64,000 nucleotides of DNA from a bacterium (lineage in GTDB: Bacteria; Patescibacteriota; CPR2; UBA1875; JAJYID01). How positions within the stretch are numbered: the stretch's first letter is position 1; the number at the start of each line of letters is the position of its first letter. Both the position numbers and the translations under genes were made by a program. Shown here piece after piece: positions 5,815 through 52,677 of this stretch. The notes below the pieces were generated by a model. The model had not been told where the DNA came from and did not search any database. It saw only the letters and a program-made list of their open reading frames with translations. Location of the stretch: contig JAJYLR010000001.1 in the NCBI GenBank assembly GCA_021787535.1, positions 83,648 through 147,647 of the forward strand, written 5' to 3'.

Positions 5815-6369
5815 TTACCGATTCCATATAGATCTAATACCGACTGAATTCATATATTTACTTTGTTCACGAATATGGCCGATTAACCGATGAACAACAC
5901 TATTAAGACGTTCATCGTGTACTCTCTGTCCCTCATTATAAAGATCTTGATATAGGGCACCGAACACTAAAGCCAACTCGTAATGTGCTCTCGGAACCTC
6001 TTGACCAGACCCAGCGGAGTCGAGATCGTTTATGGCAACAAATGATCCTTTGCAAAACCACTTGTTGCAAAAATCCCACCACTCTCCTGTTATCTTACTT
6101 ATCTGGGAAGGTGCGAGGTGTTGATAACCAAAAGCTCCCCTGATGGGAATCGGGCAAAAGGGGTACTCAGTGTAGAAATGAACACTCGTCAGATTTAAGG
6201 GATTAGTGGTAGTTGTGCACAAGTTGAGCAAATCTACCCTGACCATTCCATGAAGGTCAGTGACTCCATCATGGAAAAACTTAACGCGAATTATTATTTT
6301 CTTTTCAAGTGTTTTTAGGAGACTATTATTTAGCTGTGCTGTTTTCATCCGCGTCCTTTCAATCACCAT
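5815..6369 (-). CDS. Hypothetical protein (184 aa)
   Basis: Clean ORF with no recognisable motifs, sitting inside the accessory block. Confidence 0.4.
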   Translation of the reverse strand: MVIERTRMKTAQLNNSLLKTLEKKIIIRVKFFHDGVTDLHGMVRVDLLNLCTTTTNPLNLTSVHFYTEYPFCPIPIRGAFGYQHLAPSQISKITGEWWDFCNKWFCKGSFVAINDLDSAGSGQEVPRAHYELALVFGALYQDLYNEGQRVHDERLNSVVHRLIGHIREQSKYMNSVGIRSIWNR

Positions 6370-6675
6370 TGGAATTTCACCAGTTGGCTATGATAAGGTT
6401 CTGGCCGTTTGAATCACCATTGGACTAATCCAGATGGCTATCTGGCCCTGACAACTCTCCTGCCCGAGAGTACAAGGATTATACTATATTTAAGCCATTT
6501 CCTCAACCCTGATTTGTAACTCGAATATAAAGAAGAGTTATCCTGAAATTTCTCATTATTTTTGTAACCTAGCTTTAAATAAGTTTTGAAGAGACGAACA
6601 AAATAAAACTCCCAAAACGGGAGTTTATTTGAAACTTGTTTAAAGATTGGTGGCAAATGCACCATATAACCATAG

Positions 6676-7443
6676 TTATATTCTCTTCCATATATCCCCG
6701 GTAAGGCCAAACTGCCTTGCCTTGGCTTCGGTCGTCAAATGGATTGCCAGTTCCGGTTCATCCAACAGGGCAAGTCTGGTTTTGAAATAGCGCTTCACAT
6801 AAGTTAGTACGTCGTTGCTTGGGCAGATTATCAAAATAGTTGGAAAGTCCGTTTCTGTCTCAGCTTCCCAGTCGCTCCACTGATAAAAAGAAAGATATTT
6901 TCTGACTCTTTGCCTTAATCTTTCCTTTGGCACATTGTAAAGTATCTCCAAGAAATAATCTTTGGTTTGATTCTTGGTCGTTTGCCGAATATAGGCGGTT
7001 GGCGAGAGGTCTTTCAAGAGTTCCCCCGAGGGGTGATTATCATACTCGCTTTTCACACTCACTTCGAATCTCACTTTCCGGCTGTCTCTGTTTGTTAGAT
7101 CAAGGCAAATGTCGGCAAGCAAAAGACAGGAATTTATGAAAGAAACTGATCTTTCATTTTCCCTGTAATATTTCTGGACTGTTTTGACAGATATATTTTT
7201 ATGCTCCTTTAAATAACGGATGCCGGCTTTGGCGAGATGGTACACGGCCGGCTGAGTGTTTTTGCAAGAAGGCTTAATATATTCTTTTTTGCTCAAGTCT
7301 TTCAGCCACCTGTTTATTCCTGCTTCATCTTTATGACGCAAAAATCTTTGGATCTGAATGCGATTTAAGAACCTGTAACGAAATAAAAGAGATATAATCT
7401 CTCCCTGCCTTTTGGTTATGTCTGTTTCTTCTGTGTTAGCCAT
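6676..7443 (-). CDS. Replication-relaxation family protein (winged-helix, plasmid/ICE-associated)
   Basis: The N-terminus TDITKRQGEIISLLFRYRFLNRIQIQRFL is typical of the replication-relaxation family. It is 255 aa and adjacent to the coupling-ATPase gene. Confidence 0.5.
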   Translation of the reverse strand: MANTEETDITKRQGEIISLLFRYRFLNRIQIQRFLRHKDEAGINRWLKDLSKKEYIKPSCKNTQPAVYHLAKAGIRYLKEHKNISVKTVQKYYRENERSVSFINSCLLLADICLDLTNRDSRKVRFEVSVKSEYDNHPSGELLKDLSPTAYIRQTTKNQTKDYFLEILYNVPKERLRQRVRKYLSFYQWSDWEAETETDFPTILIICPSNDVLTYVKRYFKTRLALLDEPELAIHLTTEAKARQFGLTGDIWKRI

Positions 7444-18083: not shown

Positions 18084-18266
18084 AGAATTTCTAAATCCGA
18101 ATTTCTAATCTCTAAACAAATTCAAAATAATAAAGATCAAAACATTTTGGATTTTGGACATTTGAATTTATAATTTGTTTAGGATTTCGATATTAGAGTT
18201 TAGAATTTACAATCAGAGAAATATAAGCTGGCTTGGGTTATCATAAAGTAAGGTAAGGAGATTATC

Positions 18267-19262
18267 ATGAAAGTAGCGATCAATGGTTTTGGCAGGATTG
18301 GACGGCAGGTATTTAAAATTTTAAATGAAAAATATCCCGATGTTGATATTGTAGCTGTAAATGATTTAACCGATACCAAGACTCTGGCATATCTTTTGAA
18401 ATATGATTCCGTCCATGGTTCTTTCGCGGGTACAGTTGATGCGGGTGCGGACTCTCTCACCGTGAATGGGGAAAAAGTTCAAGTTTTGGCCGAGAAAGAT
18501 CCTATTAATCTGCCTTGGAAAGATTTGGATGTTGATGTGGTCATCGAGTCGACCGGTTTCTTTACTGATGGCGAAAAAGCCAAAGCCCACTTGGATGCCG
18601 GAGCGAAGAAAGTCTTAATCTCAGCTCCTGCAACAAATCAGGATATTACAATCGTTCTCGGTGTCAATGAAGACAAGTATGACAAAGAAAAGCACCATAT
18701 TATTTCAAATGCCTCCTGCACTACAAACTGCTTGGCACCTATCATAAAAGTTTTAGTCGATAGCTTTGGTGTGAAAAAAGGACTTATGACCACTGTGCAC
18801 TCATATACAAACGATCAGCGAATTCTGGATTTGCCCCATAAAGATCTTAGGCGAGCCAGGGCGGCAGCACTCAATATTATTCCGACTTCTACCGGAGCGG
18901 CCAAGGCGCTGAAAGAAGTTATTCCTGAAGTTGATGGTATCCTTGACGGTATGTCAATCCGGGTACCAACACCGGATGTATCGGTGGTTGATTTAACTAT
19001 AGAACTTGGGCATGGTACTACTCCTGATGAGATAACAGCTAAGATGAATGAGGCAGCCGCTGGCAGGATGAAAGGTGTCTTAGAGGTTACGGACGAACAG
19101 CTAGTCTCGATGGATTTCAAAGGAAATTGCCACTCTTCTATTTATGACAGTTTGCTGACTAAAAACATTGGGGACAATCTTTTTAAGATCATCAGCTGGT
19201 ATGACAATGAATGGGGATACTCGAATAGATTGGCAGATTTGACGAGTTTTATTATGCAATAA
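18267..19262 (+). CDS. gap: Glyceraldehyde-3-phosphate dehydrogenase
   Basis: [11 protein letters not shown]-binding motif and the [12 protein letters not shown] active-site Cys. A strong aaggag RBS is present. Confidence 0.95.
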
Positions 19263-19297: not shown

Positions 19298-19427
19298 AAG
19301 TAACAAGTAACAAGAAACAATGACCAAACAAATTTCAAATTTCAAATTAGAAACAGGGAGAATATCTTTGTTATTTGTTGATTGTTATTTGTTTGTATCT
19401 TGCTATCTTGCGCCTTGTATCTTTGAG
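19298..19427. repeat. MITE-like ~130-bp imperfect palindromic element (copy 1) immediately upstream of pgk
   Basis: aagtaacaagtaacaagaaacaatgaccaaacaaatttcaaatttcaaatt ... gttatttgttgattgttatttgtttgtatcttgctatcttgcgccttgtatcttt. It is a paralog of 51931-52065 and shows internal inverted symmetry. Confidence 0.7.
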
Positions 19428-19444
19428 ACCCGAAAGGGTGTAGC

Positions 19445-20614
19445 ATGAAGAGCATAAAAAACGCTAACTTAAAAGGTAAAAAAGTCATCATAAGGACTGA
19501 CTTTAATGTGCCTTTGGAAAACGGTAAAATCACAGACGATTCGAAGATTCAAGAGGTCATTCCAACGATAGAATATATCTTAAAATCAGGCGGTTCTATC
19601 ATTGTTATTTCTCACTTGGGTAGACCGGAGGGCAAGCGGGTTAGCGCTCTTTCACTAAAACCGGTTGCCAGAGGGCTAGAGAAACTTTTAGGCAAGAAGG
19701 TTATTTTCGTACCGGAAACTATCGGAGCAAAAGCGCGAGAAAGCGCTTCAAAGCTCAAACCCGGTCAAGTCTTGATGCTCGAAAATCTAAGATTTAGCGC
19801 TCAGGAGGAGCTGGGAGATCCTGAGTTTGCCAAAAAGCTGGCCGGTCTCGGGGATATATTTGTTCAGGAAGCATTTTCCTCAGCTCATCGTTCTCATGCC
19901 TCAATGCTTGCTATAACAAAGTTTTTGCCGTCATACGCCGGACTTCATTTCGAGGAAGAATACACGCATCTTACGAAAATCCTTAAAGAGCCGAAAAAAC
20001 CCTTTGTATTTGTTGCCGGGGGTAAAAAGGCCGGGACGAAAATTCAGTTGCTTGAAAAAATTATCGGTAAAGCCGATGTCGTATTGCTCGGGGGAGGCGT
20101 GGCCGATACCTTCCTCGTTGCCGAGGGTTACGAGATCGGCAAATCCTTTTATGAAGAAGATCATGTGAGTGATGCTGAGAGGGTCTTAAGGGAATCCTTT
20201 GACGGAGGTACCGAAATTCTTTTCCCTTCTGATGTGGTAACCGCTAAAAATGTATCCAAAGAAGCGAGAGTAGAAGAAAAAGATGTGGAACAAATGAACG
20301 GTAGTGATATAATCGTAGATATCGGACCTAAAACGGTTTCAAAGTATGCCCAACCAATAAAGTTTGCCGGCACTATCTTCTGGAACGGACCTATGGGTAT
20401 CGCTGAGTTTCCTAAATTTTCCGGCGGTACAAAAGCCATCGCAAGCATGATTGGCGAAACAGACACAGTTTCTGTGATTGGCGGCGGTGACACTCTATCT
20501 GCACTTAAAAATTTAGGTGCTATAGAAGATTTTACATATGTCTCAACTGCAGGGGGAGCGCTTATGGCTTTCTTATCGGGTGAAAAAATGCCGGTCATTG
20601 AAGCGCTCAGGTGA
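19445..20614 (+). CDS. pgk: Phosphoglycerate kinase
   Basis: IIRTDFNVP, an ISHLGRP-like motif and the C-terminal GGGDT motif. Confidence 0.95.
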   Translation: MKSIKNANLKGKKVIIRTDFNVPLENGKITDDSKIQEVIPTIEYILKSGGSIIVISHLGRPEGKRVSALSLKPVARGLEKLLGKKVIFVPETIGAKARESASKLKPGQVLMLENLRFSAQEELGDPEFAKKLAGLGDIFVQEAFSSAHRSHASMLAITKFLPSYAGLHFEEEYTHLTKILKEPKKPFVFVAGGKKAGTKIQLLEKIIGKADVVLLGGGVADTFLVAEGYEIGKSFYEEDHVSDAERVLRESFDGGTEILFPSDVVTAKNVSKEARVEEKDVEQMNGSDIIVDIGPKTVSKYAQPIKFAGTIFWNGPMGIAEFPKFSGGTKAIASMIGETDTVSVIGGGDTLSALKNLGAIEDFTYVSTAGGALMAFLSGEKMPVIEALR

Positions 20615-20656
20615 GTATAGAGTATGCAGTATTGGGTATTGGGGGTTGTCACACTC

Positions 20657-20703
20657 TATCATTCCGAGCGACTTCGCGGTAGCGACGAGCCGAGGAATCC
20701 CTT
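20657..20703. repeat. Palindromic element, type C (GTCATTCCGAGCG...CGAGGAATCCC), intergenic copy
   Basis: tcattccgagcgacttcgcggtagcgacgagccgaggaatccc. The same element occurs inverted at 37801-37848 and as variants inside uvrD and acs. Confidence 0.8.
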
Positions 20704-20735
20704 TTCAATAATGTAATTTAAAATATGATTTATAT

Positions 20736-20763
20736 AGATTCCCGCCTGCGCGGGAATGACAAA
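20736..20763. repeat. Palindromic element, type B (GATTCCCGCCTGCGCGGGAATGAC), intergenic copy
   Basis: Identical or near-identical copies at 38295-38320 (in ppsA) and 54436-54463 (in uvrD). Confidence 0.85.
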
Positions 20764-20797
20764 TAAGAGAAACAGGAATGACAAGTAAAGGAGCATT

Positions 20798-22945: not shown

Positions 22946-22956
22946 TACATCCTGTC

Positions 22957-23035
22957 ATCCTTGGGCTTGACCCGAGGATCTAGATTCCCGCCGGAGTTTA
23001 TGCTGAGCTAGATTCAGTGCGGAAATGACAAGGGA
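22957..23035. repeat. Composite palindromic element cluster (type C-like plus type B-like variants) in the intergenic DNA after 22484-22945
   Basis: ctgtcatccttgggcttgacccgaggatc followed by gattcccgccgg...cggaaatgacaag. Confidence 0.6.
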
Positions 23036-23110
23036 ATAACAGCATAAAAAAATTGCTCACTCTCAAAACGGGCAATTTTTTATTGGCGGACGAAGTTTTT
23101 GAAAAAAATC

Positions 23111-23162: not shown

Positions 23163-26100
23163 ATGTACAGTGTGACTAAGGTATCAATTATCAAGCTTTT
23201 TATAGCAGCAGCTATCCTGATTATTGCGGGTTATCTTGCTGTTTATGAACTTACTCTCCACCAGGTGTATCAAAAATACAAAGCACAGCAAACTTCAGGC
23301 GGAAACATTCCTGTTTCAAATACTGACCTCTCCAAAGATTACGTTTCTCTAAAGGGCGGCAACCCTCAAGCCGGCGCTATCAATGTTAGCGGTGATATTG
23401 CCGGCAATGATGTCCAGGGGCAAACCATTACCTCAACCGTTCAGAATGGAACATCTCCGCTTAATGTCACTTCATCAACCTTAGTTAACAACCTTAATGC
23501 TGACATGGTGGACGGCAAGCACGCAGATGAATTAACCAAAACAACCGTAAACAATATTACAAACACTACAACAGGTGAATCTATCCAGCCGGGAACAACA
23601 GGCCAATACTACCGCGGCGATAAATCCTGGCAGACCTTAAATTCTTCTGCTGTCGGTCTTGGAAATGTCGAGAATACAGCTCTTTCGACATGGACGGGAT
23701 CAAACCAAGTTGCCATTTTAGGAACCGTCACTTCCGGAACCTGGAACGCTGGTGCAATCAACGCGGCCGGTTCTATTACCGGTACAGCTCTCCAAGGCAC
23801 ATCTCTAAACCTTGGCTCTGGCACTATTATCGCAGGAACTATCAATGGCGCAACTATCTCGGGAGGCACATTATCCGGCGGCAATATTTCAGGCGGAACA
23901 GTGCAGGGCGGAACTCTTTCTTCAACTGCCGTCAATGGCGTAACTACAGCAAATATCTTAATCAACACCGGCTCATACTCTGACCCGTCATGGCTACAAG
24001 GTCTTGCCGGTTCAAAGATTACCGGAGATATATCAGGAAATGCCAGTGGCCTTACCGGCACACCAAATATCACCGTCGGTACCATTAGCTCCGGAAATAT
24101 TACATCTTCAGGGACGCTTAGTATTACAGGAACAGGGAATTCATCGGTAGCTGGGAATTTAGGTGTTAACAGTTTACTTACGCCGGAAAGTCTTGGGCCT
24201 GAGCTCGATCCAAACCCTACGCTTGATAACAATTGTAACGGCTGGACAATAGGAGGCCCGGATTGGGTATGCCACGGCAACTATTACTCGCATGATTCTT
24301 ACGGAACCAGCTATACTTATTTAACTAATGGGATACCATCTGTAATCGGACAAGTCTATAAGCTGACTTTCACGGTATCCGGCTACTCTGCGGGAAGCTT
24401 CGATTTCTATGTTGCGGGAGATAGAACGCCTACCATAACAGCAAATGGCACTTATACTTTTTATCTTAAAGCGCGCTATGCCAATGATTGGTTCTTTCCA
24501 GAACAAACTGCGAACTCTCTTTTTGCATTAGATAACATCTACCTCGAGGCGCAAAACGCGCTACCCGTATATTCAACAATAACTGCCGGCGATGTAGTAA
24601 CAAGAGGCGGATCAAAAACTGATGTTAGGGCATTTGGCGCAAAATGCGACGGCGTGACGGATGATTCAGCTGCAATTCAAGCAGCTGAAGATAGTCTGCC
24701 TTATAACGGCGGTACGTTATTCTTTCCGGCGGGTACCTGTATTGGTCATTTCACGGTCAAATCCAATGTCCACATCATGGGCAGCGGCATTGAAGCTACT
24801 GTTTTAAAATTGCCCAATGGTGCCAATACTGACGTGATTAATACGCAAGATTTTAATAACCTAACGGGTACTGATAGTCAAAGAGGTGCCTTAAGGGTGA
24901 CTCTTGAAAATATAACTTTAGATGGCAACAAAGGTAACAATTCCAGCGGATATTGTCTCAAAAAGTACGGTGCTCAATGGAATATCCATGATACTGTTTT
25001 CAGAAACGGCGCAAGCGGAGGTATGTATGCAGAATGGGGAACTTATCTGGGCATACCTTATGGCGCTGACTCTATGGAGGATAAATGGAGTAATATCTGG
25101 GTTCATGATAACAATGGCGCTTACGCTATTTGGATGAAAGGACCCCATGATAGCGTAATGACAAACTCGCTAATATATGCAAATGCCGGCAGCGGAATTT
25201 TTATAGATCATTCAGGGAGTACGTTTAATGGCGGGGGATTAACTATCAATGATACGCATATTTGGGGCAACTCCACCACTGGTTATGGCATTCTCTCAGA
25301 TACGGCGCTTCGAATGAACGGAGATATCGTTGAAGGAGAAAGCGGCAGCGGCGGTGTAGGGATTAGGATGTACCAAAATTACGATACAGGTGTCCTTACT
25401 GCTACCAATCTCGAGATTTTTGGCAACGAAACTGGCATATTACTCGATGCAAATACCCAGAGAAACAATATTTCTGGTGTCTATGTGCATGAAAATACAA
25501 ATGGCATTAAGGTTTTAAGCAATGAAAATAACATAACCGGAGCTTTAATTACCTGGCAAACTTCAGGTACGGGCTTAATTATGGGTGACGGAACTCATGT
25601 TGTTTCCAATAACAATATTGAAGGAAAGTTTTATAATAATGCAACCAGCATTAATTGGGGCAATCCTTCAAACACTAACGATTCTATTGATGCTTTGATA
25701 TCGACATCAGGCGGACAAACTGCTCTTTCGGGTAGCCCCTCAAGCACTAACAAGTTAAATATCTTGTCAGCAGGTTCTGGCGCCAATACTTCACTTACCA
25801 ATATTGCCGGTCAATTATCCATTGAGTCCGCCCAAACCTCTGGCAATCTCACCACGATCGCAGCACCCTCTGCCGTAACTGCAACGGGTGACATTGTAGG
25901 CCAGAGAATTGATCTCCGAAGTAACTACACGATTTCTAATCATCAGGTAACAGGATCATGGCTATCTATGCCGAATGTGACAAACTCCAGTGCAACCAGT
26001 GCGTGGTACAATGCATACTATGTTGATGGCGGTTCACTGCAAAATGCCGGTATAGGCAATGATTATTGGACGGGTTTTGGTTACCAAGAACCCAACATTA

Positions 26101-28784
26101 CAACCACATCATCGGGTTCAATAACATCAGTCGGCATAGAACTTTATAAACCGAGCACGATCAGCGGAGCCAATGCTCATAACTATAGTATTATAGTTGA
26201 TCCCGGCGCGGGCAATGTCGGCATCGGTACCACAGCGCCAGCTAGTCTTTTAACTGTAAATGCTCCGGTGACGACTGATAGTTCCACGGTAACTGCCATG
26301 ATTACCTCGGCTAATGCCGCCAACAAAGGGCTGGTAGTCCAAGGTTATACTTCTCAAACAGCTGATTTAATCCAGGCACAGAGTTCGCTTGGAGCGGTGC
26401 TTTTTAGTGTTGATAATTCAGGCAACATTACAACTAGCGGTAATACCGCCAAAACAATCGCAGAGGCGCGCAATACTTCAAATGCTGCGGGAAACAATCT
26501 GACGGTGCAGAGCGGCGGGGCATACGCTGGCGGTACCGATCTAAATGGCGGAAACCTGATAGCTGCCTCGGGTATTTCCACGGGACTCGGGTCGTCTAAC
26601 ATCTATCTTCAGACAGCTTCGGGTACAGGGTCTATTTCGAGCGTTAATGCAACTCCGACGACAAGCGGCAGCGGCTATAGTTTGAATGATATTTTGACTA
26701 TTTCGGAAGGTTCCGGGGGACAGGTTAAAGTTACAGGCGTCAGCAGCGGCCAGGTTACTGCTGTGACTTTGTATGCCGCTGGCATTGGCTATACAACAGG
26801 GACAGGCAAGGTGACTACCGGAGGTACGGGGACGGGTTGTTCGATTAATATTACAGGTGTGTCGAGCGGGACAACCGATCAAACGCCGAGCACAAAGATG
26901 ACCATTCTAGGAAACGGGAATGTCGGCATAGGCACCACGGCTCCCGGTGCCAAACTGACAATCCAGGGGAATGCTGTCAACAACGGCGCTGCTCCAATTA
27001 TGGAAATTCAAGACAGCACCGGAGCCGAACTCTTCAGAATTAATGCAAATGTAGTAGACAACCTCTTCATCGGCAACTCAGCTGGTAATGCCATTCAGAC
27101 GCCGGGTGTTTCCACTCAAGGGCTCTATGATACATTTATCGGCACTTATTCCGGTATGCATAATACCACAGGACACTACAACACCTTTATCGGTAACAGA
27201 TCGGGATCGGAGGATACAACCGGCGATCACAACACCGCGATCGGGATGCAAAGCGGGTACAATATTACCACCGGACAATATAATACTTATCTAGGAATAA
27301 CTGCCGGTCAGGATGGGACGACTGCCAATCACAATGTTGCTATAGGCGACTATGCGGGTATAGGCAATGTCAACGGCGATAAAAATATCTTTGTCGGTAG
27401 TTACTCTGGCTACAACCGGCTGATGGGTATCGGGGAGATATTACAAGGTTACAATGCCGGCAGTTCCGGCAAGTCCGGCGGGTACAACATTAGTCTAGGA
27501 GTAAACTCTCTGTATAATGATTATGATGGTATCGGCAATGTTTCCTTAGGCACTTATTCGCTGTTTAGCAATAAATCCTCGACAGATAAGTCGATTACGG
27601 GCTTTGCCAACTATTCAGGCAGTGAAAAGGTCACTACCTTAAACCCTCATGGGCTGGCAGTCGGCGACTCTGTATATATTACCTTTAACTCAATGGCATC
27701 AACTGAACTGACGCATAGTGCGCTCTATACGGTACAAAGTGTGATAGATGCCAATGACTTTACTATTGCCAGAACATACGACTCTGCCAATGACCTGAAG
27801 GGCTACTGGGAAAGAGGTGCCACACTTTCAGATAACGGCAGCGGCAAGGTGAGAGTAACTTCAAACAACCATGGCGTGCCAAACGGAGGCCTTGTTATCC
27901 TTGGAGGAACGGGAGCAAATTCATCTTATGATGGTATGCATACAGCTACGCTTATAGATGCAAACCATTTCGATCTGACGGATTTAACTTATTCATCCAG
28001 CTATACAACGGGCTGGTTTGAATACGAGCCGCAATCAGGGAATAACACCGCTGTCGGAAGCTATGCCGGCTATGCCAATACAACCGGCTATAATAATACT
28101 TTTCTTGGCTACAATGCCGGCAATGCCGGCACGACAGGCACGCTGCAGAATGCTGCGGCTATCGGATATAACGCCCAAGTTACGGAAAGCAATGCTATAG
28201 TCTTGGGCGGTACGGGCTCAAGTGCGGTCAATGTTGGCATTGGCACAACTGCCCCGGGTGCTAACCTGGAGATTGATAGCAATGCTGCAGGTACTATCGT
28301 TCAGATCATTAAGGCGTATTCCGGTCAGACCGCAGATCTTTTGGAGATCCAGGGCTCTGATACCAGCGTTTTAGCGAAGATTGATGCATCCGGCAACCTG
28401 ACGGCAAAGGCCGCATCATTTACCGGAACACTCACCGTGACAGGTCACTTTAAATCAACCCAAACAACAGCTCCGACGATAGGTACGCCGACAAGCTGCG
28501 GTACGACACCGACTGCTGCAGTGACTGCCGGTTCAACCGACTCAGCTGGATCATTAACCATCACTGCCGGTACTGGTGCTCCTGGTAACTGCGCTGCTCA
28601 AATAACCTTTAATACTGCCTATGGCGCTGCCCCTAAGTCAATTATTCTGACGCCAAGTACTGCAACCGGTCCGGCTAAACAAGCATATATTTCTGCTAGT
28701 TCTGCTACCACATTCACAGTTACATTTGGAACGGCTCCGACTGCTTCTGAAGCTAATACTTTCTACTACTGGGTTGTAGAATGA
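23163..28784 (+). CDS. Giant surface protein (1873 aa) with an N-terminal signal-anchor, a pectate-lyase-superfamily right-handed beta-helix (tailspike/depolymerase-like) and tail-fibre-like NTxxG repeats
   Basis: VRAFGAKCDGVTDDSAAIQAAEDSLPYNGGTLFFPAGTC is the hallmark N-terminus of the pectate-lyase-3 beta-helix family. Repeated xNTxxGxxAG units lie between aa ~1300 and 1480. The N-terminus is hydrophobic: IIKLFIAAAILIIAGYLAVY. Confidence 0.8.
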   Translation: MYSVTKVSIIKLFIAAAILIIAGYLAVYELTLHQVYQKYKAQQTSGGNIPVSNTDLSKDYVSLKGGNPQAGAINVSGDIAGNDVQGQTITSTVQNGTSPLNVTSSTLVNNLNADMVDGKHADELTKTTVNNITNTTTGESIQPGTTGQYYRGDKSWQTLNSSAVGLGNVENTALSTWTGSNQVAILGTVTSGTWNAGAINAAGSITGTALQGTSLNLGSGTIIAGTINGATISGGTLSGGNISGGTVQGGTLSSTAVNGVTTANILINTGSYSDPSWLQGLAGSKITGDISGNASGLTGTPNITVGTISSGNITSSGTLSITGTGNSSVAGNLGVNSLLTPESLGPELDPNPTLDNNCNGWTIGGPDWVCHGNYYSHDSYGTSYTYLTNGIPSVIGQVYKLTFTVSGYSAGSFDFYVAGDRTPTITANGTYTFYLKARYANDWFFPEQTANSLFALDNIYLEAQNALPVYSTITAGDVVTRGGSKTDVRAFGAKCDGVTDDSAAIQAAEDSLPYNGGTLFFPAGTCIGHFTVKSNVHIMGSGIEATVLKLPNGANTDVINTQDFNNLTGTDSQRGALRVTLENITLDGNKGNNSSGYCLKKYGAQWNIHDTVFRNGASGGMYAEWGTYLGIPYGADSMEDKWSNIWVHDNNGAYAIWMKGPHDSVMTNSLIYANAGSGIFIDHSGSTFNGGGLTINDTHIWGNSTTGYGILSDTALRMNGDIVEGESGSGGVGIRMYQNYDTGVLTATNLEIFGNETGILLDANTQRNNISGVYVHENTNGIKVLSNENNITGALITWQTSGTGLIMGDGTHVVSNNNIEGKFYNNATSINWGNPSNTNDSIDALISTSGGQTALSGSPSSTNKLNILSAGSGANTSLTNIAGQLSIESAQTSGNLTTIAAPSAVTATGDIVGQRIDLRSNYTISNHQVTGSWLSMPNVTNSSATSAWYNAYYVDGGSLQNAGIGNDYWTGFGYQEPNITTTSSGSITSVGIELYKPSTISGANAHNYSIIVDPGAGNVGIGTTAPASLLTVNAPVTTDSSTVTAMITSANAANKGLVVQGYTSQTADLIQAQSSLGAVLFSVDNSGNITTSGNTAKTIAEARNTSNAAGNNLTVQSGGAYAGGTDLNGGNLIAASGISTGLGSSNIYLQTASGTGSISSVNATPTTSGSGYSLNDILTISEGSGGQVKVTGVSSGQVTAVTLYAAGIGYTTGTGKVTTGGTGTGCSINITGVSSGTTDQTPSTKMTILGNGNVGIGTTAPGAKLTIQGNAVNNGAAPIMEIQDSTGAELFRINANVVDNLFIGNSAGNAIQTPGVSTQGLYDTFIGTYSGMHNTTGHYNTFIGNRSGSEDTTGDHNTAIGMQSGYNITTGQYNTYLGITAGQDGTTANHNVAIGDYAGIGNVNGDKNIFVGSYSGYNRLMGIGEILQGYNAGSSGKSGGYNISLGVNSLYNDYDGIGNVSLGTYSLFSNKSSTDKSITGFANYSGSEKVTTLNPHGLAVGDSVYITFNSMASTELTHSALYTVQSVIDANDFTIARTYDSANDLKGYWERGATLSDNGSGKVRVTSNNHGVPNGGLVILGGTGANSSYDGMHTATLIDANHFDLTDLTYSSSYTTGWFEYEPQSGNNTAVGSYAGYANTTGYNNTFLGYNAGNAGTTGTLQNAAAIGYNAQVTESNAIVLGGTGSSAVNVGIGTTAPGANLEIDSNAAGTIVQIIKAYSGQTADLLEIQGSDTSVLAKIDASGNLTAKAASFTGTLTVTGHFKSTQTTAPTIGTPTSCGTTPTAAVTAGSTDSAGSLTITAGTGAPGNCAAQITFNTAYGAAPKSIILTPSTATGPAKQAYISASSATTFTVTFGTAPTASEANTFYYWVVE
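23403..23800. repeat. 398-bp tract 100% identical to 29102-29499 in the downstream paralog (recent gene conversion or duplication)
   Basis: Base-by-base comparison of the two listings across all lines in this interval. Flanks diverge immediately at 23402/29101 and at 23801/29500. Confidence 0.9.
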
Positions 28785-28861: not shown

Positions 28862-31800
28862 ATGTATAACCCAACCAAGTCAACCTTAATTAAAATCTTC
28901 TCTTTAATATCTATTTTAATTTTATGCGGTTTTTTGCTTGTTTACGAACTGACGATTCATGAAGTTAATCAGAAATACAAAAACCAGCAGTCTTCGCAGG
29001 GCAATATTTCGCTTTCAACTTCCGATCTCTCCAAAGATTACGTATCACTCAAGGGCTCAAATCCTCAGTCCGGCAATATCAACCTTGAGGGCAATATCTC
29101 AGGCAATGATGTCCAGGGGCAAACCATTACCTCAACCGTTCAGAATGGAACATCTCCGCTTAATGTCACTTCATCAACCTTAGTTAACAACCTTAATGCT
29201 GACATGGTGGACGGCAAGCACGCAGATGAATTAACCAAAACAACCGTAAACAATATTACAAACACTACAACAGGTGAATCTATCCAGCCGGGAACAACAG
29301 GCCAATACTACCGCGGCGATAAATCCTGGCAGACCTTAAATTCTTCTGCTGTCGGTCTTGGAAATGTCGAGAATACAGCTCTTTCGACATGGACGGGATC
29401 AAACCAAGTTGCCATTTTAGGAACCGTCACTTCCGGAACCTGGAACGCTGGTGCAATCAACGCGGCCGGTTCTATTACCGGTACAGCTCTCCAAGGCACG
29501 TCCTTAAATCTTGGTTCAGGCGCTATCACATCAGGCGCAATTAACGGCCAAACTATTTCTTCCAGCGCTAACTTTACAGGAACTATTACGGCTGGCGGTA
29601 CCATTAACGGAGCTACAATCTCCGGAGGCACACTTTCCGGCGGAAATGTCTCAGGCGGTACTGTCCAGGGTGGAACGCTTTCGTCAACGGCTGTCAACGG
29701 CGTAACTACGGCAAACATTCTAGTCAACACCGGCTCATATTCTGATCCTTCTTGGCTACAAGGTCTTGCCGGTTCAAAGATTACCGGAGATATTCAAGGA
29801 AATGCTAGCGGGTTAACGGGTTCACCTAATATCACGGTTGGTACGATCACTTCCGGCAACATCACATCATCGGGAACACTGGATATTACAGGAACAGGGG
29901 ATTCAACAGTTGGCGGTAATATTTCAGTGAACCCGGACTTTGGCTCTGAGCTAACGACAAATGGAAACTTTAACGGCAGTGCCAACAACTGGCTGGTTTC
30001 CTGCACCGATTATTCCAGCGGTTCCACTGCCTGTAATACGGCTGATACGCCAAACTCAGTTCCGGCATCCGGTTGGTCTTACGGCTCAAACAGTGTTTCT
30101 CATGCTTCTGGAACAAACAACACTGATGCCTTATATCAGGACATTTCAAATACGGCGGGAGAAACATACGGATCAAATATCATTACAGACAGCAACTTTT
30201 CTCTCAATCCTGCAACTAACGGATGGGATTGGATGGATGCCGGCTGGCATTGGGTAAACAACACCGCTATGACTAATGCCGGAGGAGCGTATTTCGGCGA
30301 TGATCTCGGAACAAGCCTTACAGCCGGACTGTACAAAGTTCAATTCTCAACATCGGGAATGCCTGCTGGCGGGCAACTAAAAGTTGCTTTATCCAGTGGA
30401 GGGATAAGTGAAGATGCAGCAGTCGTATCAGGTAACGGCCAACATACTTTCTATTTCACAGTCGGCACCACTCCTGAGACGGGTGGCTGGCCATATTATC
30501 TATATTTTGATTCGACATCGGTTGGCACCACCATTGATAACGTGTCGGCTCAACTGGTTACCGGCGCTCAGTTCGGAGAATCGCAAACTCAGTCATACAA
30601 AGTTAGTTTCGCTGTCTCGGGCATGACAGCCGGATCGCTCTCCGCCAATCTCGGTGGTGTCGGCGGGTCGCCCATTACGGCCAATGGGACCTATACCCAG
30701 TATTTAATTGGCAAGCCCAACGCTAACATCATTTCATTTGTTCCATCACATGATGCTGTCTTTACTCTTTCAAATATTTCCGTTACTCCGGTTCAGAACG
30801 GCACTATTACTGTTCAGGATATCATTACCAAAGGAGGGCCGAAAGTTGACGTCAGAGCTTATGGCGCAAAAGGAGACGGGAAGACCGACAATACGGCGGC
30901 CATCCAGGCGGCGGAAGACAGTCTCCCTGATCAGGGCGGCACTCTTTATTTCCCATCCGGAACATTTCTCGGCCACGTAACCCTAAAGTCAAATGTCCAT
31001 GTTGAAGGTGCCGGTATCAACGCAACCATACTGAAACTTCCGAACGGCGCAAATACGGATGTGATTGCCTCCAAAGATTTCGCCAGCTTGACCGGCAACA
31101 CAACCAACAGAGATGGTGTTAATAGAGTTACACTCGATGACATAACCATCGACGGAAATGCAGGAAACAATACCGCGGGTTACGGTGTCAGAAAATACGG
31201 AGGCCAATGGAATGTTCATGACGTTGTCATTAAAAACTGCGCTCAGGACGGAGTCTATTCTGAGTGGGGTAGCTATGGGGGCGCTCCTCTTGTGGCTGAT
31301 TCAATGGAAGATCATTGGACTAATATTATGCTTACTGTTAATTCCGGCAGCGGTATGACCTGGAACGGCCCTCATGATAGCGTGCTCGACAACTTTATTG
31401 TAAGTAGCAACAGTGGCAATGGGATCAATTTTGAGAATGCATCCGGGGGGGTTGCCAATGGTACCCAGCTGAAGAATTCCCACATTTGGGGCAATTCATC
31501 AACAGGTTATGGTTTGTGGATTAAAACGAGTATAAATCTTGACAATGATATTGTCGAAGGGGCAACCGGTACTGGCGGAATCGGCATTTATGTGGATTCC
31601 GGCGGAGCCATCTTGGCAAACGGCCTCCAAGTCTATGCTTGTGAAACAGGAGTTTACATAAGCGGAGTGTCGCCGGGCGGAAATAATGAGATTACAGGAA
31701 TTACTTTGTCTACTATTACTAAAGCTAATATTGTCATTTATAGCGCTTGGTCCGTCCGAATAACCGGTGCCACAATTTCGATCTCTTCGAATTCTTCAAG

Positions 31801-32731
31801 TGCAGTGGGTATTGATCTGCAAAGCGGAGGAAATGCCTATATAGATAATGCAGTGATCAGTTTAGGACAGAATTCGCATGGCATTAATGTTGGTAGCTCA
31901 GGGTCGGCGTTTACCGGCAGTATGATTTCTGCCAGGATTGTAGGATATACCGGAAGCAGCCCGACCGGAACCATGATCAATTGGGCTAATGCCGGAGATG
32001 CCAACAACAACTTAACAGCCACAGTTTCGACACATACGGGAGAAACCGCTCTTGCAGGCAGTCCCGCAGCAAGTAATGAAATTAATATTTTATCAACAGG
32101 GACTGGGACAAATGCGAATTACAAAAACTTCTCAAGCGCCAATAACGTTGGGGTTGGGGTAATTAATTCTCAAAACAAGCTTAGCGTTAATGCTCCTGTT
32201 ACGGCTGACACGCTGGCAACCACGATAATTACGCCAACTGTGGCTTCGAACAAAGGTTTAGTAGTGCAAGGTTATACTTCGCAAACTGCTGACTTGATCC
32301 AGGCGCAAAGTTCACTAGGAGCCGTGTTATTTAAGATTGACAACTCGGGTAACTTGGCGGCTAAAAGCGCAACCTTCACCGGCACATTGACTATGAACGG
32401 TCATATTATTACCGGAAACTCAATCGGTTCGACGACGATTGCCGCCGGAGCTAATGCAGGAACGGGAGCCACGGCAACAATCAGTGGAAACGACACTTCG
32501 GGGACTATCACAGTGACGACTGGAACCGGCCCGGCTGCGGGAACTTTGGCAACTATTACATTTGCCGGTACCTATGGCTCGGCACCAAGAGTGGTTTTGA
32601 CACCAACCGGCGCAAATGGCGCAACTCTGCAATATTATGTCGGATCCACAACCACAACATTTACCTTATCTAGCGGTACGGCACCGACGGCTTCAACCGC
32701 CTACACCTACAATTATCAGGTAATGCAGTAG
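28862..32731 (+). CDS. Giant surface protein paralog (1289 aa) with the same N-terminal anchor, a shared conserved ~300-aa N-domain, a pectate-lyase-type beta-helix and a shared C-terminal domain
   Basis: VRAYGAKGDGKTDNTAAIQAAEDSLPDQGGTLYFPSGTF. The N- and C-terminal regions align with the upstream gene. The genes are in tandem with a 77-bp spacer. Confidence 0.8.
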   Translation: MYNPTKSTLIKIFSLISILILCGFLLVYELTIHEVNQKYKNQQSSQGNISLSTSDLSKDYVSLKGSNPQSGNINLEGNISGNDVQGQTITSTVQNGTSPLNVTSSTLVNNLNADMVDGKHADELTKTTVNNITNTTTGESIQPGTTGQYYRGDKSWQTLNSSAVGLGNVENTALSTWTGSNQVAILGTVTSGTWNAGAINAAGSITGTALQGTSLNLGSGAITSGAINGQTISSSANFTGTITAGGTINGATISGGTLSGGNVSGGTVQGGTLSSTAVNGVTTANILVNTGSYSDPSWLQGLAGSKITGDIQGNASGLTGSPNITVGTITSGNITSSGTLDITGTGDSTVGGNISVNPDFGSELTTNGNFNGSANNWLVSCTDYSSGSTACNTADTPNSVPASGWSYGSNSVSHASGTNNTDALYQDISNTAGETYGSNIITDSNFSLNPATNGWDWMDAGWHWVNNTAMTNAGGAYFGDDLGTSLTAGLYKVQFSTSGMPAGGQLKVALSSGGISEDAAVVSGNGQHTFYFTVGTTPETGGWPYYLYFDSTSVGTTIDNVSAQLVTGAQFGESQTQSYKVSFAVSGMTAGSLSANLGGVGGSPITANGTYTQYLIGKPNANIISFVPSHDAVFTLSNISVTPVQNGTITVQDIITKGGPKVDVRAYGAKGDGKTDNTAAIQAAEDSLPDQGGTLYFPSGTFLGHVTLKSNVHVEGAGINATILKLPNGANTDVIASKDFASLTGNTTNRDGVNRVTLDDITIDGNAGNNTAGYGVRKYGGQWNVHDVVIKNCAQDGVYSEWGSYGGAPLVADSMEDHWTNIMLTVNSGSGMTWNGPHDSVLDNFIVSSNSGNGINFENASGGVANGTQLKNSHIWGNSSTGYGLWIKTSINLDNDIVEGATGTGGIGIYVDSGGAILANGLQVYACETGVYISGVSPGGNNEITGITLSTITKANIVIYSAWSVRITGATISISSNSSSAVGIDLQSGGNAYIDNAVISLGQNSHGINVGSSGSAFTGSMISARIVGYTGSSPTGTMINWANAGDANNNLTATVSTHTGETALAGSPAASNEINILSTGTGTNANYKNFSSANNVGVGVINSQNKLSVNAPVTADTLATTIITPTVASNKGLVVQGYTSQTADLIQAQSSLGAVLFKIDNSGNLAAKSATFTGTLTMNGHIITGNSIGSTTIAAGANAGTGATATISGNDTSGTITVTTGTGPAAGTLATITFAGTYGSAPRVVLTPTGANGATLQYYVGSTTTTFTLSSGTAPTASTAYTYNYQVMQ

Positions 32732-32732: not shown

Positions 32733-32772
32733 CAAGCAACCGCTTGCTTGCTTTTACAAGGACAGTCCTTGT
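32733..32772 (+). terminator. Tandem hairpins after the giant gene: gcaagcaa-ccgc-ttgcttgc followed by TTTT, then the 17-nt perfect palindrome acaaggacagtccttgt
   Basis: Inverted repeats read directly from the sequence. The second palindrome is a member of a recurring gene-end palindrome family (also at 33875, 58092 and 61281). Confidence 0.55.
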
Positions 32773-32780
32773 TAAAATTC

Positions 32781-32849
32781 TGTATAGATGCTTGAGTTTT
32801 TGTATAGATATTTGACATTTTGTATAGTTTTTGATAGTATATCTATACA
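32781..32849 (+). promoter_or_regulatory. Promoter (TTGACA-17-TAGTAT) carrying three direct TGTATAG(A) repeats and an inverted CTATACA. A candidate operator array for the downstream MerR-type regulator.
   Basis: tgtataga at 32781 and 32801, tgtatag at 32821 inside the spacer, ctataca at 32843. ttgaca at 32812-32817 and tagtat at 32835-32840. The ATG at 32852 implies a leaderless or very short leader. Confidence 0.5.
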
Positions 32850-32851
32850 AT

Positions 32852-33840: not shown

Positions 33841-33874
33841 ATATTGTCTCATTTTAAACATCGTGGTTGCTTTT

Positions 33875-33891
33875 ACAAGGACTGTCCTTGT
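33875..33891 (+). terminator. Gene-end palindrome acaaggactgtccttgt (family member, opposite central base)
   Basis: A perfect 17-nt palindrome 35 nt after the STAS stop. Confidence 0.45.
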
Positions 33892-34037: not shown

Positions 34038-34048
34038 GAGGAGATAAT

Positions 34049-50037: not shown

Positions 50038-51141
50038 GTGGCAACTCAAACTAAAACTAAAACGGTTTTAATGACCGGGAATCAAGCGGTGGTGAAAGCG
50101 GCTTTGGCTGTCGGTGCTGAGATGTTCAGCGGTTATCCGATAACGCCGACTACTGAAATTCTGACCGAATGGTCAAAAGCGGCCGAAAATAATAAAGATC
50201 TCATATTTTTGCAGACCGAGGATGAGCCGGCGGCCGGCTTTGTGATGATTGGCGGAGTTTCCATGGGCAAAAAGGCTTGGACGGCGACAGCCGGCGTCGG
50301 GCACGTTCTGATGCAGGATCCGCTCTCTATGGCAGAAGCTATGAGAATCCCGACGGTGACTTATATCGGCCAGCGCGGCGGTCCCTCAACCGGCACAGTG
50401 ATCTATTCCCAGCAAGAGCTGAATCTGGCTCGGATGGGCGGAAACGGCGAAGGCCTTCGCATCGTCTTTGCGCCTTCGAACCTGCAAGAACTCTACGATC
50501 TGACCATTAAGGCATTTAATGTAGCTTGGAAATACCGGTTTCCGACATTTATTCTATCCGACGGATATCTTGCCAAAACATATGGAGAAATTGAGCTTTG
50601 GCAGCCAAACAAATCGGAAATCGTGCCGACCGAAAGTTTCTTTTTGAATCCCAAAACAAGTCCGAACAATATCAGAAACTGCTACTCTATGGAGGTTGAG
50701 CTTTATGACCAACTGCTCAAAGACTTTGCCGATTATGCCAAAATGTCAGAGAAAGTTGAAGAAAGCGAGCTACTTGGCGACAAGAAGACAAATCTTTTAG
50801 TTTGCGCCTGGGGTGCGGTAGGAAACTCGGCTAAAACAGCGCTTAAGGCACTGGAAAAACAAAACATTTATTTTAAACTTTTCCGTCCGATTACTCTTAG
50901 GCCGTTTCCGGCAAAAGATCTGCAAAAAGCGGCGGAAGGAGTGACGGATATCCTCATTTTAGAGTCAGCAAACGGGCAGTTTGGCCGCATTGTGCGAGAA
51001 TCTTTGTATGGCACGACCGAAGCCGAAGTGCATCGCCTGTACAAACCGGCTATGGGCATCATGCCGGAAGAAATTCAAGCCAAAGTTAAGGAAGTATTTA
51101 AATTGGAGGATTCTGGACAAGCCAGAATGACGCAATCATGA
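50038..51141 (+). CDS. 2-oxoacid:ferredoxin oxidoreductase alpha subunit (pyruvate/2-ketoisovalerate type)
   Basis: LMTGNQAVVKAALAVGAEMFSGYPITPTTEI matches the PorA/KorA N-terminus. The C-terminal tail EDSGQARMTQS is encoded by a type A half-element. Confidence 0.85.
   Translation: MATQTKTKTVLMTGNQAVVKAALAVGAEMFSGYPITPTTEILTEWSKAAENNKDLIFLQTEDEPAAGFVMIGGVSMGKKAWTATAGVGHVLMQDPLSMAEAMRIPTVTYIGQRGGPSTGTVIYSQQELNLARMGGNGEGLRIVFAPSNLQELYDLTIKAFNVAWKYRFPTFILSDGYLAKTYGEIELWQPNKSEIVPTESFFLNPKTSPNNIRNCYSMEVELYDQLLKDFADYAKMSEKVEESELLGDKKTNLLVCAWGAVGNSAKTALKALEKQNIYFKLFRPITLRPFPAKDLQKAAEGVTDILILESANGQFGRIVRESLYGTTEAEVHRLYKPAMGIMPEEIQAKVKEVFKLEDSGQARMTQS
51108..51131. repeat. Type A half-element (ggattctggacaagccagaatgac) forming the 3' end of the OFOR alpha gene
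   Basis: Identical to the copy at 39403-39425. Confidence 0.85.
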
Positions 51142-51896
51142 TAAGCCCTCGATTTGCTTCGACAATTAAACCTTCTTCAAAACCATCGAACTTCTGTCCA
51201 GGATGTGGCCATTCCATAATCCTCAAGAATTTAGGGCAGATAATATCAGATCTCAAAATAGAAAAAAAGACGGTATTTCCCATAGACATCGGCTGTTCGC
51301 TTCTGGCTTGGGATTTTTTTGATGTTGATACTTTCCAGACACATCATGGCCGGACCACGGCAGCAGCAGTGGGACAGAAAAGGGCGCGTCCGGATGCTAT
51401 TATCCTCGCTTACATGGGCGACGGCGGAGGGTATGCCATCGGACTGCAAAACTTAGTTCATGCCTGCTATCGCAATGAGAATATTACGGTGATTTTGGTC
51501 AACAATACTATGTTTTCCATGACCGGAGGACAGATGGCGCCGACATCTTTGCCGCATGAGGTAACATCATCATCGCCGGACGGTGCATTTACCCAAGACA
51601 AACCCTTCTACGGTCCGGAAATGCTGGCTCGCGAAGCCCATGACGGCGCATATATCGCCAGAGCGGCCGTCTCAAATCCGGGGCAGATGAAAGCTTATAT
51701 GCAAAAAGCTATCCAAAATCAGATAGACGGCAAAGGTTTTTCATTTGTCGAAGTGCTTTCGTACTGTCCGACGAACTGGAAGACAAACGCCGAACAAACA
51801 ATTAGGTTTTTAGAAAAAATGAAAGAAACGTTTCCGGTAGGAGAGATTAAAAATCCTTCTCTGTCATCCCGAGCCCATTCGACAAGCTCAGGATAA
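51138..51896 (+). CDS. 2-oxoacid:ferredoxin oxidoreductase beta subunit (TPP-binding)
   Basis: FCPGCGH near the N-terminus, and a GDGG thiamine-diphosphate-binding motif. The start overlaps the alpha-subunit stop. The C-terminal 15 aa and the stop are encoded by a type C element. Confidence 0.85.
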   Translation: MISPRFASTIKPSSKPSNFCPGCGHSIILKNLGQIISDLKIEKKTVFPIDIGCSLLAWDFFDVDTFQTHHGRTTAAAVGQKRARPDAIILAYMGDGGGYAIGLQNLVHACYRNENITVILVNNTMFSMTGGQMAPTSLPHEVTSSSPDGAFTQDKPFYGPEMLAREAHDGAYIARAAVSNPGQMKAYMQKAIQNQIDGKGFSFVEVLSYCPTNWKTNAEQTIRFLEKMKETFPVGEIKNPSLSSRAHSTSSG

Positions 51897-51925
51897 ACTC
51901 CGCAATAGCGGAGTCGAGGGATCCC
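51863..51925. repeat. Type C variant element (gtcatcccgagcccattcgacaagctcagg...gagtcgagggatccc) spanning the 3' end of the OFOR beta gene
   Basis: It encodes the ...PSLSSRAHSTSSG tail and the TAA stop. Confidence 0.75.
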
Positions 51926-51930
51926 TTAAA

Positions 51931-52065
51931 AAGAAGTAACAAGATACAAGAGACAATGACCAAACAATACTCAAAATTCAATTTTCAAGAAGCAAACGAC
52001 GTCGGTTTGTTATTTGGTTATTGTTCCTTGTTTGTACCTTGCTTTCTTGCATCTTGTATCTTTAA
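51931..52065. repeat. MITE-like ~135-bp element (copy 2) immediately upstream of the OFOR gamma gene. Paralog of 19298-19427.
   Basis: aagaagtaacaagatacaagagacaatgaccaaacaatactcaaaattcaattttcaag ... gtttgttatttggttattgttccttgtttgtaccttgctttcttgcatcttgtatcttt. Confidence 0.7.
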
Positions 52066-52080: not shown

Positions 52081-52677
52081 ATGAAGGACGTAAAACGAAT
52101 ACTAGTTTCAGGCGAAGGAGGACAAGGCGTTCAGACTATTGCCAAAGTTTTAGCCGAAGCAGCTTATGACTCAGGTGAGAAAGCCCTCTATGTGCCAAAC
52201 TACGGTGTGGAACAGCGCGGAGGCGTATCGCTTGGCTTTGTCCAGATTTCAAAAGAAGAGATCGGCTTTCCCAAGTTCCAAGACGCTGATATTTTGGTTA
52301 TCTTGGCTGAAAGAGCCATTGAGAGGGTGATAGAATATATCACAAAAGATACAGTAGTGATTTATGACGAAACCTTAGTATCGGAAGATAAACTGAAAGG
52401 TATTTCAAGTGAAAAGATAGCTATACAAGCGCTCAAATGCGCCGAAGAAACGATGACTGGAAGAGTGATGAACATGATTGTTCTTGGGTTTTTAGCAAAT
52501 ATGGTTGGCGGAATGAGCTTAGACAGGATGGAAAAGACCGTTCACGAACGCCTGAAGGAAAAATACGAGAGAAGCCCAGAACTGAAACATTTTAATACAA
52601 GGGCGCTGGAAATAGGAATGAGAGAAATTCCAAAAAGTTTATGGATCAAAGATGGCAAGAAGGAGGTTTCTGTATGA
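52081..52677 (+). CDS. 2-oxoacid:ferredoxin oxidoreductase gamma subunit
   Basis: ILVSGEGGQGVQTIAKVLAEAA matches the Por/Kor gamma N-terminal motif. A ggagg RBS is present. Confidence 0.8.
   Translation: MKDVKRILVSGEGGQGVQTIAKVLAEAAYDSGEKALYVPNYGVEQRGGVSLGFVQISKEEIGFPKFQDADILVILAERAIERVIEYITKDTVVIYDETLVSEDKLKGISSEKIAIQALKCAEETMTGRVMNMIVLGFLANMVGGMSLDRMEKTVHERLKEKYERSPELKHFNTRALEIGMREIPKSLWIKDGKKEVSV

Follow-up and report, generated by a model that had tools for sequence, protein, structure and literature searches.

What kind of sequence sits, twice over, immediately ahead of pgk and of the OFOR gamma-subunit gene in the stretch of DNA analysed here (64,000 nucleotides, hereafter the window)? 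The original prediction read the two occurrences, at 19298-19427 and 51931-52065, as homologous copies of a MITE-like element, each in the promoter region of a central-metabolism gene, with simple segmental duplication as the alternative. Homology is confirmed at exactly these positions, at ~78-81% identity: pairwise alignment gives 81% mean column identity with the flanks included and 78% identity over 129 aligned bases for the element only, while blastn with copy 2 as the query recovers copy 1 at E = 4e-23. A repeat search finds the head (84%) and tail (86%) of the pair independently, and the alignment runs end to end, non-repetitive centre included, with similarity ending at the element borders. 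Identical stretches common to both copies comprise a 15-mer (ACAATGACCAAACAA) and two 11-mers (TTTGTTATTTG and CTTGTATCTTT).

The predicted anatomy is likewise present, i.e., the head (AAGTAACAAG...ACAATGACCAAACAA), the tail (TTTGTTATTTG...CTTGTATCTTT), and the CAAATTT core; the (CAAATTT)n tract is clean in copy 1, the centre of which alone holds a clean (CAAATTT)3, and degenerate in copy 2. The elements end 17 nt from the pgk ATG (19445) and 15 nt from the OFOR gamma ATG (52081), within the 15-20 nt proposed. Internal inverted symmetry is also real, with predicted RNA folds of -35 to -37 kcal/mol on both strands; against dinucleotide shuffles, the z-scores of the two copies are -1.8 to -3.6, each copy yielding one long imperfect hairpin from either strand. 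A point absent from the prediction is that the arms of both copies consist of arrayed 7-nt units, the only invariant part of which is CAA on the left and TTG on the right. Each copy is thus laid out as an imperfect palindrome, CAA-phased on the left, AT-rich in the centre, and TTG-phased on the right (Table 1). The units themselves are degenerate (AAGTAAC, AAGAAAC, AATGACC, and others), unlike the exact or near-exact units of arrays of the STRR type, STRR sequences being the heptanucleotide repeats of Calothrix, Anabaena, and Nostoc.

Table 1. Coordinates of the two element copies, their neighbouring genes, and other repeats within the window
Feature	Position	Strand	Remarks
Element copy 1	19298..19427	.	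within 182-nt gap/pgk spacer
Copy 1, left arm	19298-19331		AAGTAAC AAGTAAC AAGAAAC AATGACC AAACAA
Copy 1, AT-rich centre	19332-19366		holds (CAAATTT)n
Copy 1, right arm	19367-19427		TTG-phased heptads, terminus CTTGTATCTTT
Element copy 2	51931..52065	.	within 184-nt OFOR beta/gamma spacer
Copy 2, left arm	51934-51967		
Copy 2, centre	51968-52005		
Copy 2, right arm	52006-52065		
gap (glyceraldehyde-3-phosphate dehydrogenase)	18267..19262	+	upstream of copy 1, same operon
Small hairpin ACCC-GAAA-GGGT	19428..19439	+	between copy 1 and pgk start
pgk (phosphoglycerate kinase)	19445..20614	+	downstream of copy 1; PF00162
OFOR beta subunit (TPP_enzyme_C)	51138..51896	+	upstream of copy 2
GTCATCCCGAG...CGAGGGATCCCTT hairpin repeat, different family	51862..51927	.	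abuts copy 2
OFOR gamma subunit (POR)	52081..52677	+	downstream of copy 2
Heptad palindromes of other sub-families	18084-18215, 34690-34772, 37697-37800, 40396-40490, 42573-42660, 47171-47250		
GC-rich hairpins	20654-20703, 20735-20768, 22950-23040, 33950-34040, 37800-37850, 38281-38327, 48657-48706, 51862-51927, 54437-54468, others		
In-frame repeat in ACS	48657-48846		gene 47232-49571
In-frame repeats in UvrD/PcrA	54368-54540, 55679-55816		gene 54074-56647
In-frame repeats in PPDK	38224-38330, 38987-39031, 39386-39430		gene 37864-40395
In-frame repeat in iPGM	45118-45157		gene 44005-45276

The genomic setting does not bear out a promoter region. Both copies lie between co-directional genes, the order of which (gap-pgk-tpi-fba and ACS-OFOR alpha-beta-gamma-delta) is kept in four related genomes, with Pfam confirming gap, pgk, tpi, and OFOR alpha/beta/gamma/delta (Gp_dh_N/Gp_dh_C, PGK, TIM, POR_N, TPP_enzyme_C, POR, and Fer4). 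The elements therefore occupy spacers within conserved operons (gap/pgk and OFOR beta/gamma), and consensus scans detected neither a sigma-70-like promoter nor an intrinsic terminator inside either copy. At gathering score, Rfam gave 0 hits across the whole window, and E-value scans of both copies returned only chance-level snoRNA/sRNA matches (E 0.26-0.4). The proposed link to central metabolism is incidental, homologues elsewhere adjoining pilus, histidine-biosynthesis, DNA-repair, and ATP-synthase genes, among others. As for the immediate surroundings, the small hairpin between copy 1 and pgk overlaps the sole Shine-Dalgarno-like AAGGG; it is outside the repeat and absent from copy 2. The final ~14 codons of OFOR beta and its stop codon come from the repeat of a different family that abuts copy 2.

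Within the window the exact sub-family has two copies only; beyond it, homologues are numerous. Family counts rest on at least 120 loci recovered by a metagenome scan with a 20-nt pattern; among the loci listed, iterated nhmmer found at least about 70 sites, at least about 45 of which are full length (100-150 nt), on other contigs, in both orientations, and beside unrelated neighbouring genes, with E-values down to 1e-29. The element is thus multi-copy and no one-off duplication. Conservation of the 20-nt core is an ascertainment effect, as the scan pattern forces that core, and it is the right arm and centre that provide evidence independent of the pattern. Scored against the family profile, copy 1 reaches 5.6e-23 on the + strand and 1e-20 on the - strand, and copy 2 reaches 7.6e-29 and 4e-24, respectively. 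In the family alignment, CAA (left) or TTG (right) is invariant every 7 columns with free positions between, giving the general formula (NNNNCAA)n, AT-rich centre, (TTGNNNN)n, in which the number of heptad units varies between copies. Terminal inverted repeats are present, the arms being imperfect reverse complements that the profile scores almost equally on both strands; the wider family has ends of the type AAATAACCAAG...CTTGGTTATTT, the window sub-family AAGTAACAAG...CTTGTATCTTT. A scan of the contigs of representative genomes, which apparently do not include the window's own species, with AATGACCAAACAA-N(25-55)-TTGTTATTTG gave 4 matches, of which one is real (an Omnitrophota MAG, L002), the other three being chance matches inside genes. 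No rRNA signature was found in any locus examined, and hence no element inside an rRNA gene. The window carries 20 phased CAA/TTG 7-nt runs versus 1.4 in shuffles; 33 kb of the related genome GCA_030647205 carries one. Other heptad palindrome sub-families (AAT/ATT- or CCAAT-phased) occupy most window spacers longer than 150 nt.

Most family sites lie between the stop and start codons of co-directional genes, 0-40 nt from each, as judged from frames read from stop to stop, in which the first start codon lying outside the element was taken, such that these distances are approximate. In compact, mostly co-directional genomes, this closeness is the chance expectation. Relative to the flanking genes, 20 copies are in the same and 13 in the opposite orientation, i.e., without preference; an earlier orientation mark, "A/C-rich arm first", was dropped since it is true on both strands of any such palindrome. 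Sense and antisense transcripts fold equally well (-30.4 versus -30.5 kcal/mol, p = 0.68); interruptions break the stems every 5-7 bp, and the folds of some copies are weak (-13 to -20 kcal/mol). RNAalifold predicted 15 base pairs, every one of them within the conserved CAA(G)/TTG blocks and 5 of them without any variation; both sides change in only 1 of the 15, and the covariation term is 0.22. As the variable heptad positions do not covary, selection may act not on pairing but on the CAA/TTG motif itself, e.g., as a site bound by a protein. The original prediction had also called for a search for target-site duplications, the outcome of which was negative: across 41 copies, the longest direct repeat in the flanks averages 4.10 nt versus 3.98 +/- 0.14 nt for permuted flanks, with 23% of permutations reaching the observed value, a comparison that leaves room for a 2-nt duplication. 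Mixed orientation, equal sense and antisense folding, and flanking repeats no longer than in permuted flanks together speak against a regulatory RNA tied to one strand as well as against a classical MITE that duplicates its target site. A structured cis-regulatory RNA of the leader or riboswitch type is not supported, given the lack of covariation, the mixed strand, the varied neighbouring genes, and the lack of any Rfam match at gathering score.

Orthologous spacers in related genomes differ in whether they hold the element. In GCA_030647205, the gap-pgk spacer measures 21 nt (L126) and beta and gamma overlap by 4 nt (ATGA; L134), both sites being empty; a multi-copy, short, non-coding, inverted-repeat element with insertion polymorphism is thus borne out. 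Other relatives carry different heptad-type elements in the gap/pgk and beta/gamma spacers. In a groundwater genome (L135), the corresponding beta/gamma spacer holds a homologous element (5859-5990), and a second copy of the same sub-family lies in an SH3/ACS spacer (1718-1842); yet another locus (L132) has a copy of this sub-family in the gamma/delta spacer (6649-6756). Window copy 1, window copy 2, and the L135 beta/gamma copy are mutually ~78-80% identical, and this equidistance means that the window pair is no recent duplication; judged from these three closest copies, there is no sign of recent transposition in this genome. Between L135 and the window, pgk and OFOR gamma share 71% protein identity, and the bases between element and start codon cannot be aligned. 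The element has thus been kept more similar than its surroundings, which could stem from selection, homogenisation, or repeated seeding by a conserved source.

Other repeats adjoin or enter these palindromes. Small GC-rich hairpins are nested between the heptads of the arms or in the loop of several family members (L145 ~980-1130 versus L148; L089 881-1062; L111 330-385), and elements that otherwise do not differ hold one such hairpin or two in tandem; the heptad arms therefore act as landing pads for other small repeats. Elhai and co-workers reportedly described, in 2008, small dispersed repeats nested in Nostoc heptamer arrays; the GC-rich hairpins between the family heptads are a comparable arrangement, as are the window GTCATTCC...GGAATGAC modules abutting heptad arms, although this likeness concerns nested passengers and not the heptad element, and the sequence families and hosts differ. 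A second repeat family is abundant in the window, its GC-rich hairpins reading GTCATTCC(N)nGGAATGAC or GGATTCC...GGAATCC and often abutting heptad arms. Half heptad arms and GTCATTCC...GGAATGAC-type hairpins also occur in frame inside conserved window enzymes (Table 1), and comparison with the L134 orthologues places extra residues exactly at the repeats (~52 in ACS; ~90 and ~46 in UvrD). These in-frame insertions in ACS, UvrD, PPDK, and iPGM resemble Rickettsia palindromic elements. In the L132 gamma/delta spacer (6780-6890), the first 18 nt of the delta gene are present twice (ATGAGAGATTATAAAGGA / ATGAAAGATTATAAAGGA), the duplicates flanking a ~70-nt segment that holds a GTCATTCCCGCG...GGGAAACC hairpin; the 18-nt duplicate may have arisen as a long target duplication through the hairpin repeat family in question. 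In Candidatus Schekmanbacteria RBG_16_38_10 (L129), a run of N (3362-3491) falls exactly in the gap/pgk spacer, beside a GGAATGAC-type repeat, which suggests that such repeats break assemblies.

Some further features of the window are recorded here in their own right. In a 370-nt non-coding stretch (53250-53620), the first feature is a strong terminator-like hairpin (53301-53326), after which come a perfect TTGACA-16-TATAAT promoter (53344-53371), its -10 extended by TG, and then GC-rich, apparently structured sequence; the stretch matches no Rfam family, with chance-level microRNA matches only, and could be an undescribed small RNA or leader. The palindrome TTTTACAAGGAC(A/T)GTCCTTGT flanks a MerR-family gene (32831-33574) at 32738-32779 and 33857-33898, recurs at 58095-58135, and may be an operator or terminator motif. 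Two adjacent giant paralogous genes (23163-28784, 1873 aa; 28862-32731, 1289 aa) share 73-80% DNA identity over repeat segments, and giant genes occupy the same position in relatives (L126, 2457 aa; L130, 1846 aa).

The identity of the family is best read from its fuller members, which carry a PF05635 gene in the loop and of which the window copies are the gene-less miniature form. At four loci (L027, L111, L014, and L104), the arms enclose an ORF of 115-116 aa in place of the short centre; at two more (L065 and L124), a CAA-heptad arm precedes the ORF, with L124 also having an inverted arm downstream. The loop ORF is identified as PF05635, "23S rRNA-intervening sequence protein" (E 1e-16 to 4e-19), and as TIGR02436, "four helix bundle protein" (E 1e-21). 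At E <= 1e-20, 2404 proteins are homologous to its product, and those that bear a name belong to Candidatus Omnitrophota. As the gene-bearing loci had been found through the arm pattern, a test was run from the protein side: three close homologues, picked by protein sequence alone and present in at least 5 genomic contexts, are all flanked by CAAG/CTTG heptad arms, which the gene-less profile recognises at E 1e-7 to 9e-11. One gene-bearing element (L162), once its ORF is removed, gives a 109-nt alignment with window copy 2 (71% identity, E 1e-11). Moreover, one identical gene-bearing element occurs in three contexts (between T2SSE and T2SSF, after hisF, and before hisI), with sharp borders (AAATAACCAAG...CTTGGTTATTT) and without duplication. 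Neither the window nor the 110 kb sampled from its close relatives contains a PF05635 gene, and the tie of the window copies to the gene-bearing form thus rests on arm homology to mostly Omnitrophota-labelled elements.

The same association of gene and array was found on cyanobacterial plasmids. A tblastn search of the loop ORF against 72,556 plasmids gave matches in cyanobacteria only; eight of these matches, together with one annotated four-helix-bundle gene in a 50-kb stretch of pNFSY06, were examined, and all nine PF05635 genes lie between inverted arrays of exact heptamers (AATTCGT/ACGAATT, AATTCGC/GCGAATT, AATCCCC+AATCGTA and complements, AAATTCA/TGAATTT, and AGTAAAA). The 50 kb of pNFSY06 contain 12 heptamer arrays, 4 of which bracket the two four-helix-bundle genes and 2 of which form a gene-less inverted pair. 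Several of the plasmid genes and their arrays are set in defence operons, either between cas2 and an opposite-strand cas1 or between DISARM drmD and a BREX PglX or MmeI-type gene (L138 and L139 on Anabaena cylindrica and Nostoc plasmids; L137 and L140 on Planktothrix plasmids).

Three groups of known elements invite comparison, and the element is best filed with the IVS / heptamer-repeat kind and not with the MITE, REP, or riboswitch families. Small, non-coding, hairpin-forming, multi-copy, insertion-polymorphic repeats co-transcribed within operons include MITEs, REP/REPIN-RAYT, Correia/NEMIS, RUP, and ERIC sequences, with REPINs reportedly described as miniature mobile DNA; the window copies share these properties, their co-transcription being probable. 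Unlike MITEs and REPs, the family lacks target-site duplications and any transposase or RAYT partner that we could see, its gene partner is PF05635, and its arms are AT-rich heptad arrays in place of a defined terminal repeat or a GC-rich REP. Closer are the heptamer repeats of the cyanobacterial STRR type and of Beggiatoaceae and Bacteroidetes, which are likewise built of 7-nt units, intergenic, often a few bases from start codons, variable in unit number, of several unit types per genome, and without assigned function; on cyanobacterial plasmids, moreover, an inverted pair brackets a PF05635 gene as it does in this family. These repeats differ from the family in that its units are degenerate, with only CAA/TTG fixed, its hosts are uncultured non-cyanobacterial lineages, and its arrays always form an inverted pair making up one ~130-nt element with conserved ends and centre.

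The 23S (and 16S) rRNA intervening sequences (IVS) with an S23p / PF05635 ORF, found in Leptospira, Coxiella, Brucella, Xanthomonas, and CPR bacteria, complete the comparison. In Coxiella, the 23S IVS forms a stem from its terminal inverted repeats, carries an S23p ORF in the loop, is cut out by RNase III, and has tandem heptameric repeats upstream of the ORF whose number varies among strains (PMC4990558). In CPR bacteria, rRNA genes contain 23S_rRNA_IVP ORFs together with many short ORF-less insertions at IVS sites (PMC11270868). IVS and family alike thus have stem-forming terminal inverted repeats, a four-helix-bundle gene in the loop of full-length members, variable-number tandem heptamers beside the ORF, and short ORF-less versions; both are sporadic in distribution, look horizontally spread, and are regarded as selfish. 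Unlike the IVS, the window copies are in mRNA spacers of protein-coding operons and not in rRNA helices, and they have no ORF; their arms are long degenerate heptad arrays, unlike the 28-bp near-perfect IVS stem, and RNase III excision, published for the IVS, would apply to the window hairpins by analogy. In the limited library consulted, no literature joining heptamer arrays and four-helix-bundle genes as one unit was found save a remark in the Coxiella IVS paper, which is no proof of novelty, and none on such heptamer repeats in Omnitrophota.

How, then, are the window copies best explained? Simple segmental duplication of one promoter/5'-UTR region would suit the presence of only two sub-family copies in the window, but it is refuted by dozens of homologues on unrelated contigs, by the equally divergent third copy in another genome (L135), and by a similarity confined within the element borders; we accord it hardly any credence. 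Convergent local growth, in which each spacer expands its own heptamers by replication slippage and the likeness reflects shared mutational bias, would account for the variable unit number between copies and in Coxiella strains (PMC4990558) and for the many heptad types coexisting in the window. It is rendered very improbable by end-to-end alignment through a non-repetitive centre and an identical 15-nt core, by identical elements with sharp borders in different contexts, and by the profile E-values (down to 1e-29). As to the term "MITE-like", its descriptive part stands, the element being small, palindromic, multi-copy, and insertion-polymorphic, whereas its mechanistic part does not, with no target-site duplication and no transposase-bearing parent seen. 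A classical MITE, i.e., what deletion has left of a transposase-encoding insertion sequence, mobilised in trans by that transposase via its terminal inverted repeats, would be short and non-coding with many copies in both orientations and empty orthologous sites, all as observed; however, duplications are not above chance (2-nt ones aside), the whole arm is a degenerate heptad array of variable unit number in place of a defined terminal repeat, and a transposase was seen neither between arms in ~700 kb of loci, where PF05635 is the sole enclosed gene, nor among the 20 window ORFs scanned with Pfam. We thus consider this origin distinctly improbable.

A host cis-regulatory module calls for more discussion. 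Here the arrays would bind a heptamer-reading protein (Csp/S1-like or four-helix-bundle), or the hairpin would set translation or mRNA stability of the downstream cistron, with the element being kept for function. Copies do end 0-40 nt from start codons, and CAA/TTG phasing and ~78% identity persist where the pgk and OFOR gamma proteins are 71% identical and the flanking spacer is unconserved. Heptamer repeats near start codons affect the expression of Nostoc reporter constructs (bioRxiv 10.1101/2022.06.06.494920), and those of Beggiatoaceae have been proposed as post-transcriptional regulator sites (PMC4679880). Against this, the orthologous spacers of an otherwise syntenic relative are without the element, unrelated heptad elements replace it in other relatives, the downstream genes share no function, orientation shows no preference (20 versus 13), and nearness to stop and start codons is expected for any insert in a short spacer. 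Dedicated regulation is thus unlikely, and the element probably behaves as a selfish resident and not as a regulator dedicated to pgk or OFOR. The explanation that we favour, and regard as probable, is that the window copies are gene-less members of an IVS-like, STRR-like family of heptamer-array palindromes, selfish in character, with a hairpin that would serve as an RNase III substrate.

For such a selfish palindrome, a simple mode of coexistence with the host can be proposed. Co-transcribed with its operon, as we infer, the element would form a long imperfect A-U/G-U-rich hairpin, which by analogy with the inverted-repeat stem of the IVS is a likely substrate for RNase III. Cleavage at this hairpin would split the polycistronic mRNA between two cistrons, harming neither. 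A harmless cut of this type would explain why insertions are tolerated in operon spacers, only a few bases from stop and start codons.

Taken alone, the element is an ordinary selfish repeat, and its interest is in the link that it exposes between heptamer arrays and the intervening-sequence protein. On a broader and rather doubtful view, which we offer tentatively, inverted heptamer arrays and the four-helix-bundle (S23p / Avd-like) gene would constitute one kind of mobile unit, extending from cyanobacteria to Omnitrophota and CPR-like bacteria, in which the small pentameric protein reads its own and gene-less arrays and drives their spread or processing without a known transposase, perhaps via an RNA stage like that of its DGR relative Avd; rRNA IVS, STRRs, and operon-spacer hairpins would then be three faces of the same unit. 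In practical terms, these elements and the other repeats of this genome break assemblies; the elements also lengthen ORFs and can be mistaken for promoters or regulatory RNAs. Ultimately, the presence of a PF05635 gene precisely between inverted heptamer arrays in several phyla, with gene-less hairpins of the family filling operon spacers, physically joins two old puzzles, namely the use of heptanucleotide repeats in cyanobacteria and other bacteria and the role of the "intervening-sequence protein" of rRNA insertions.
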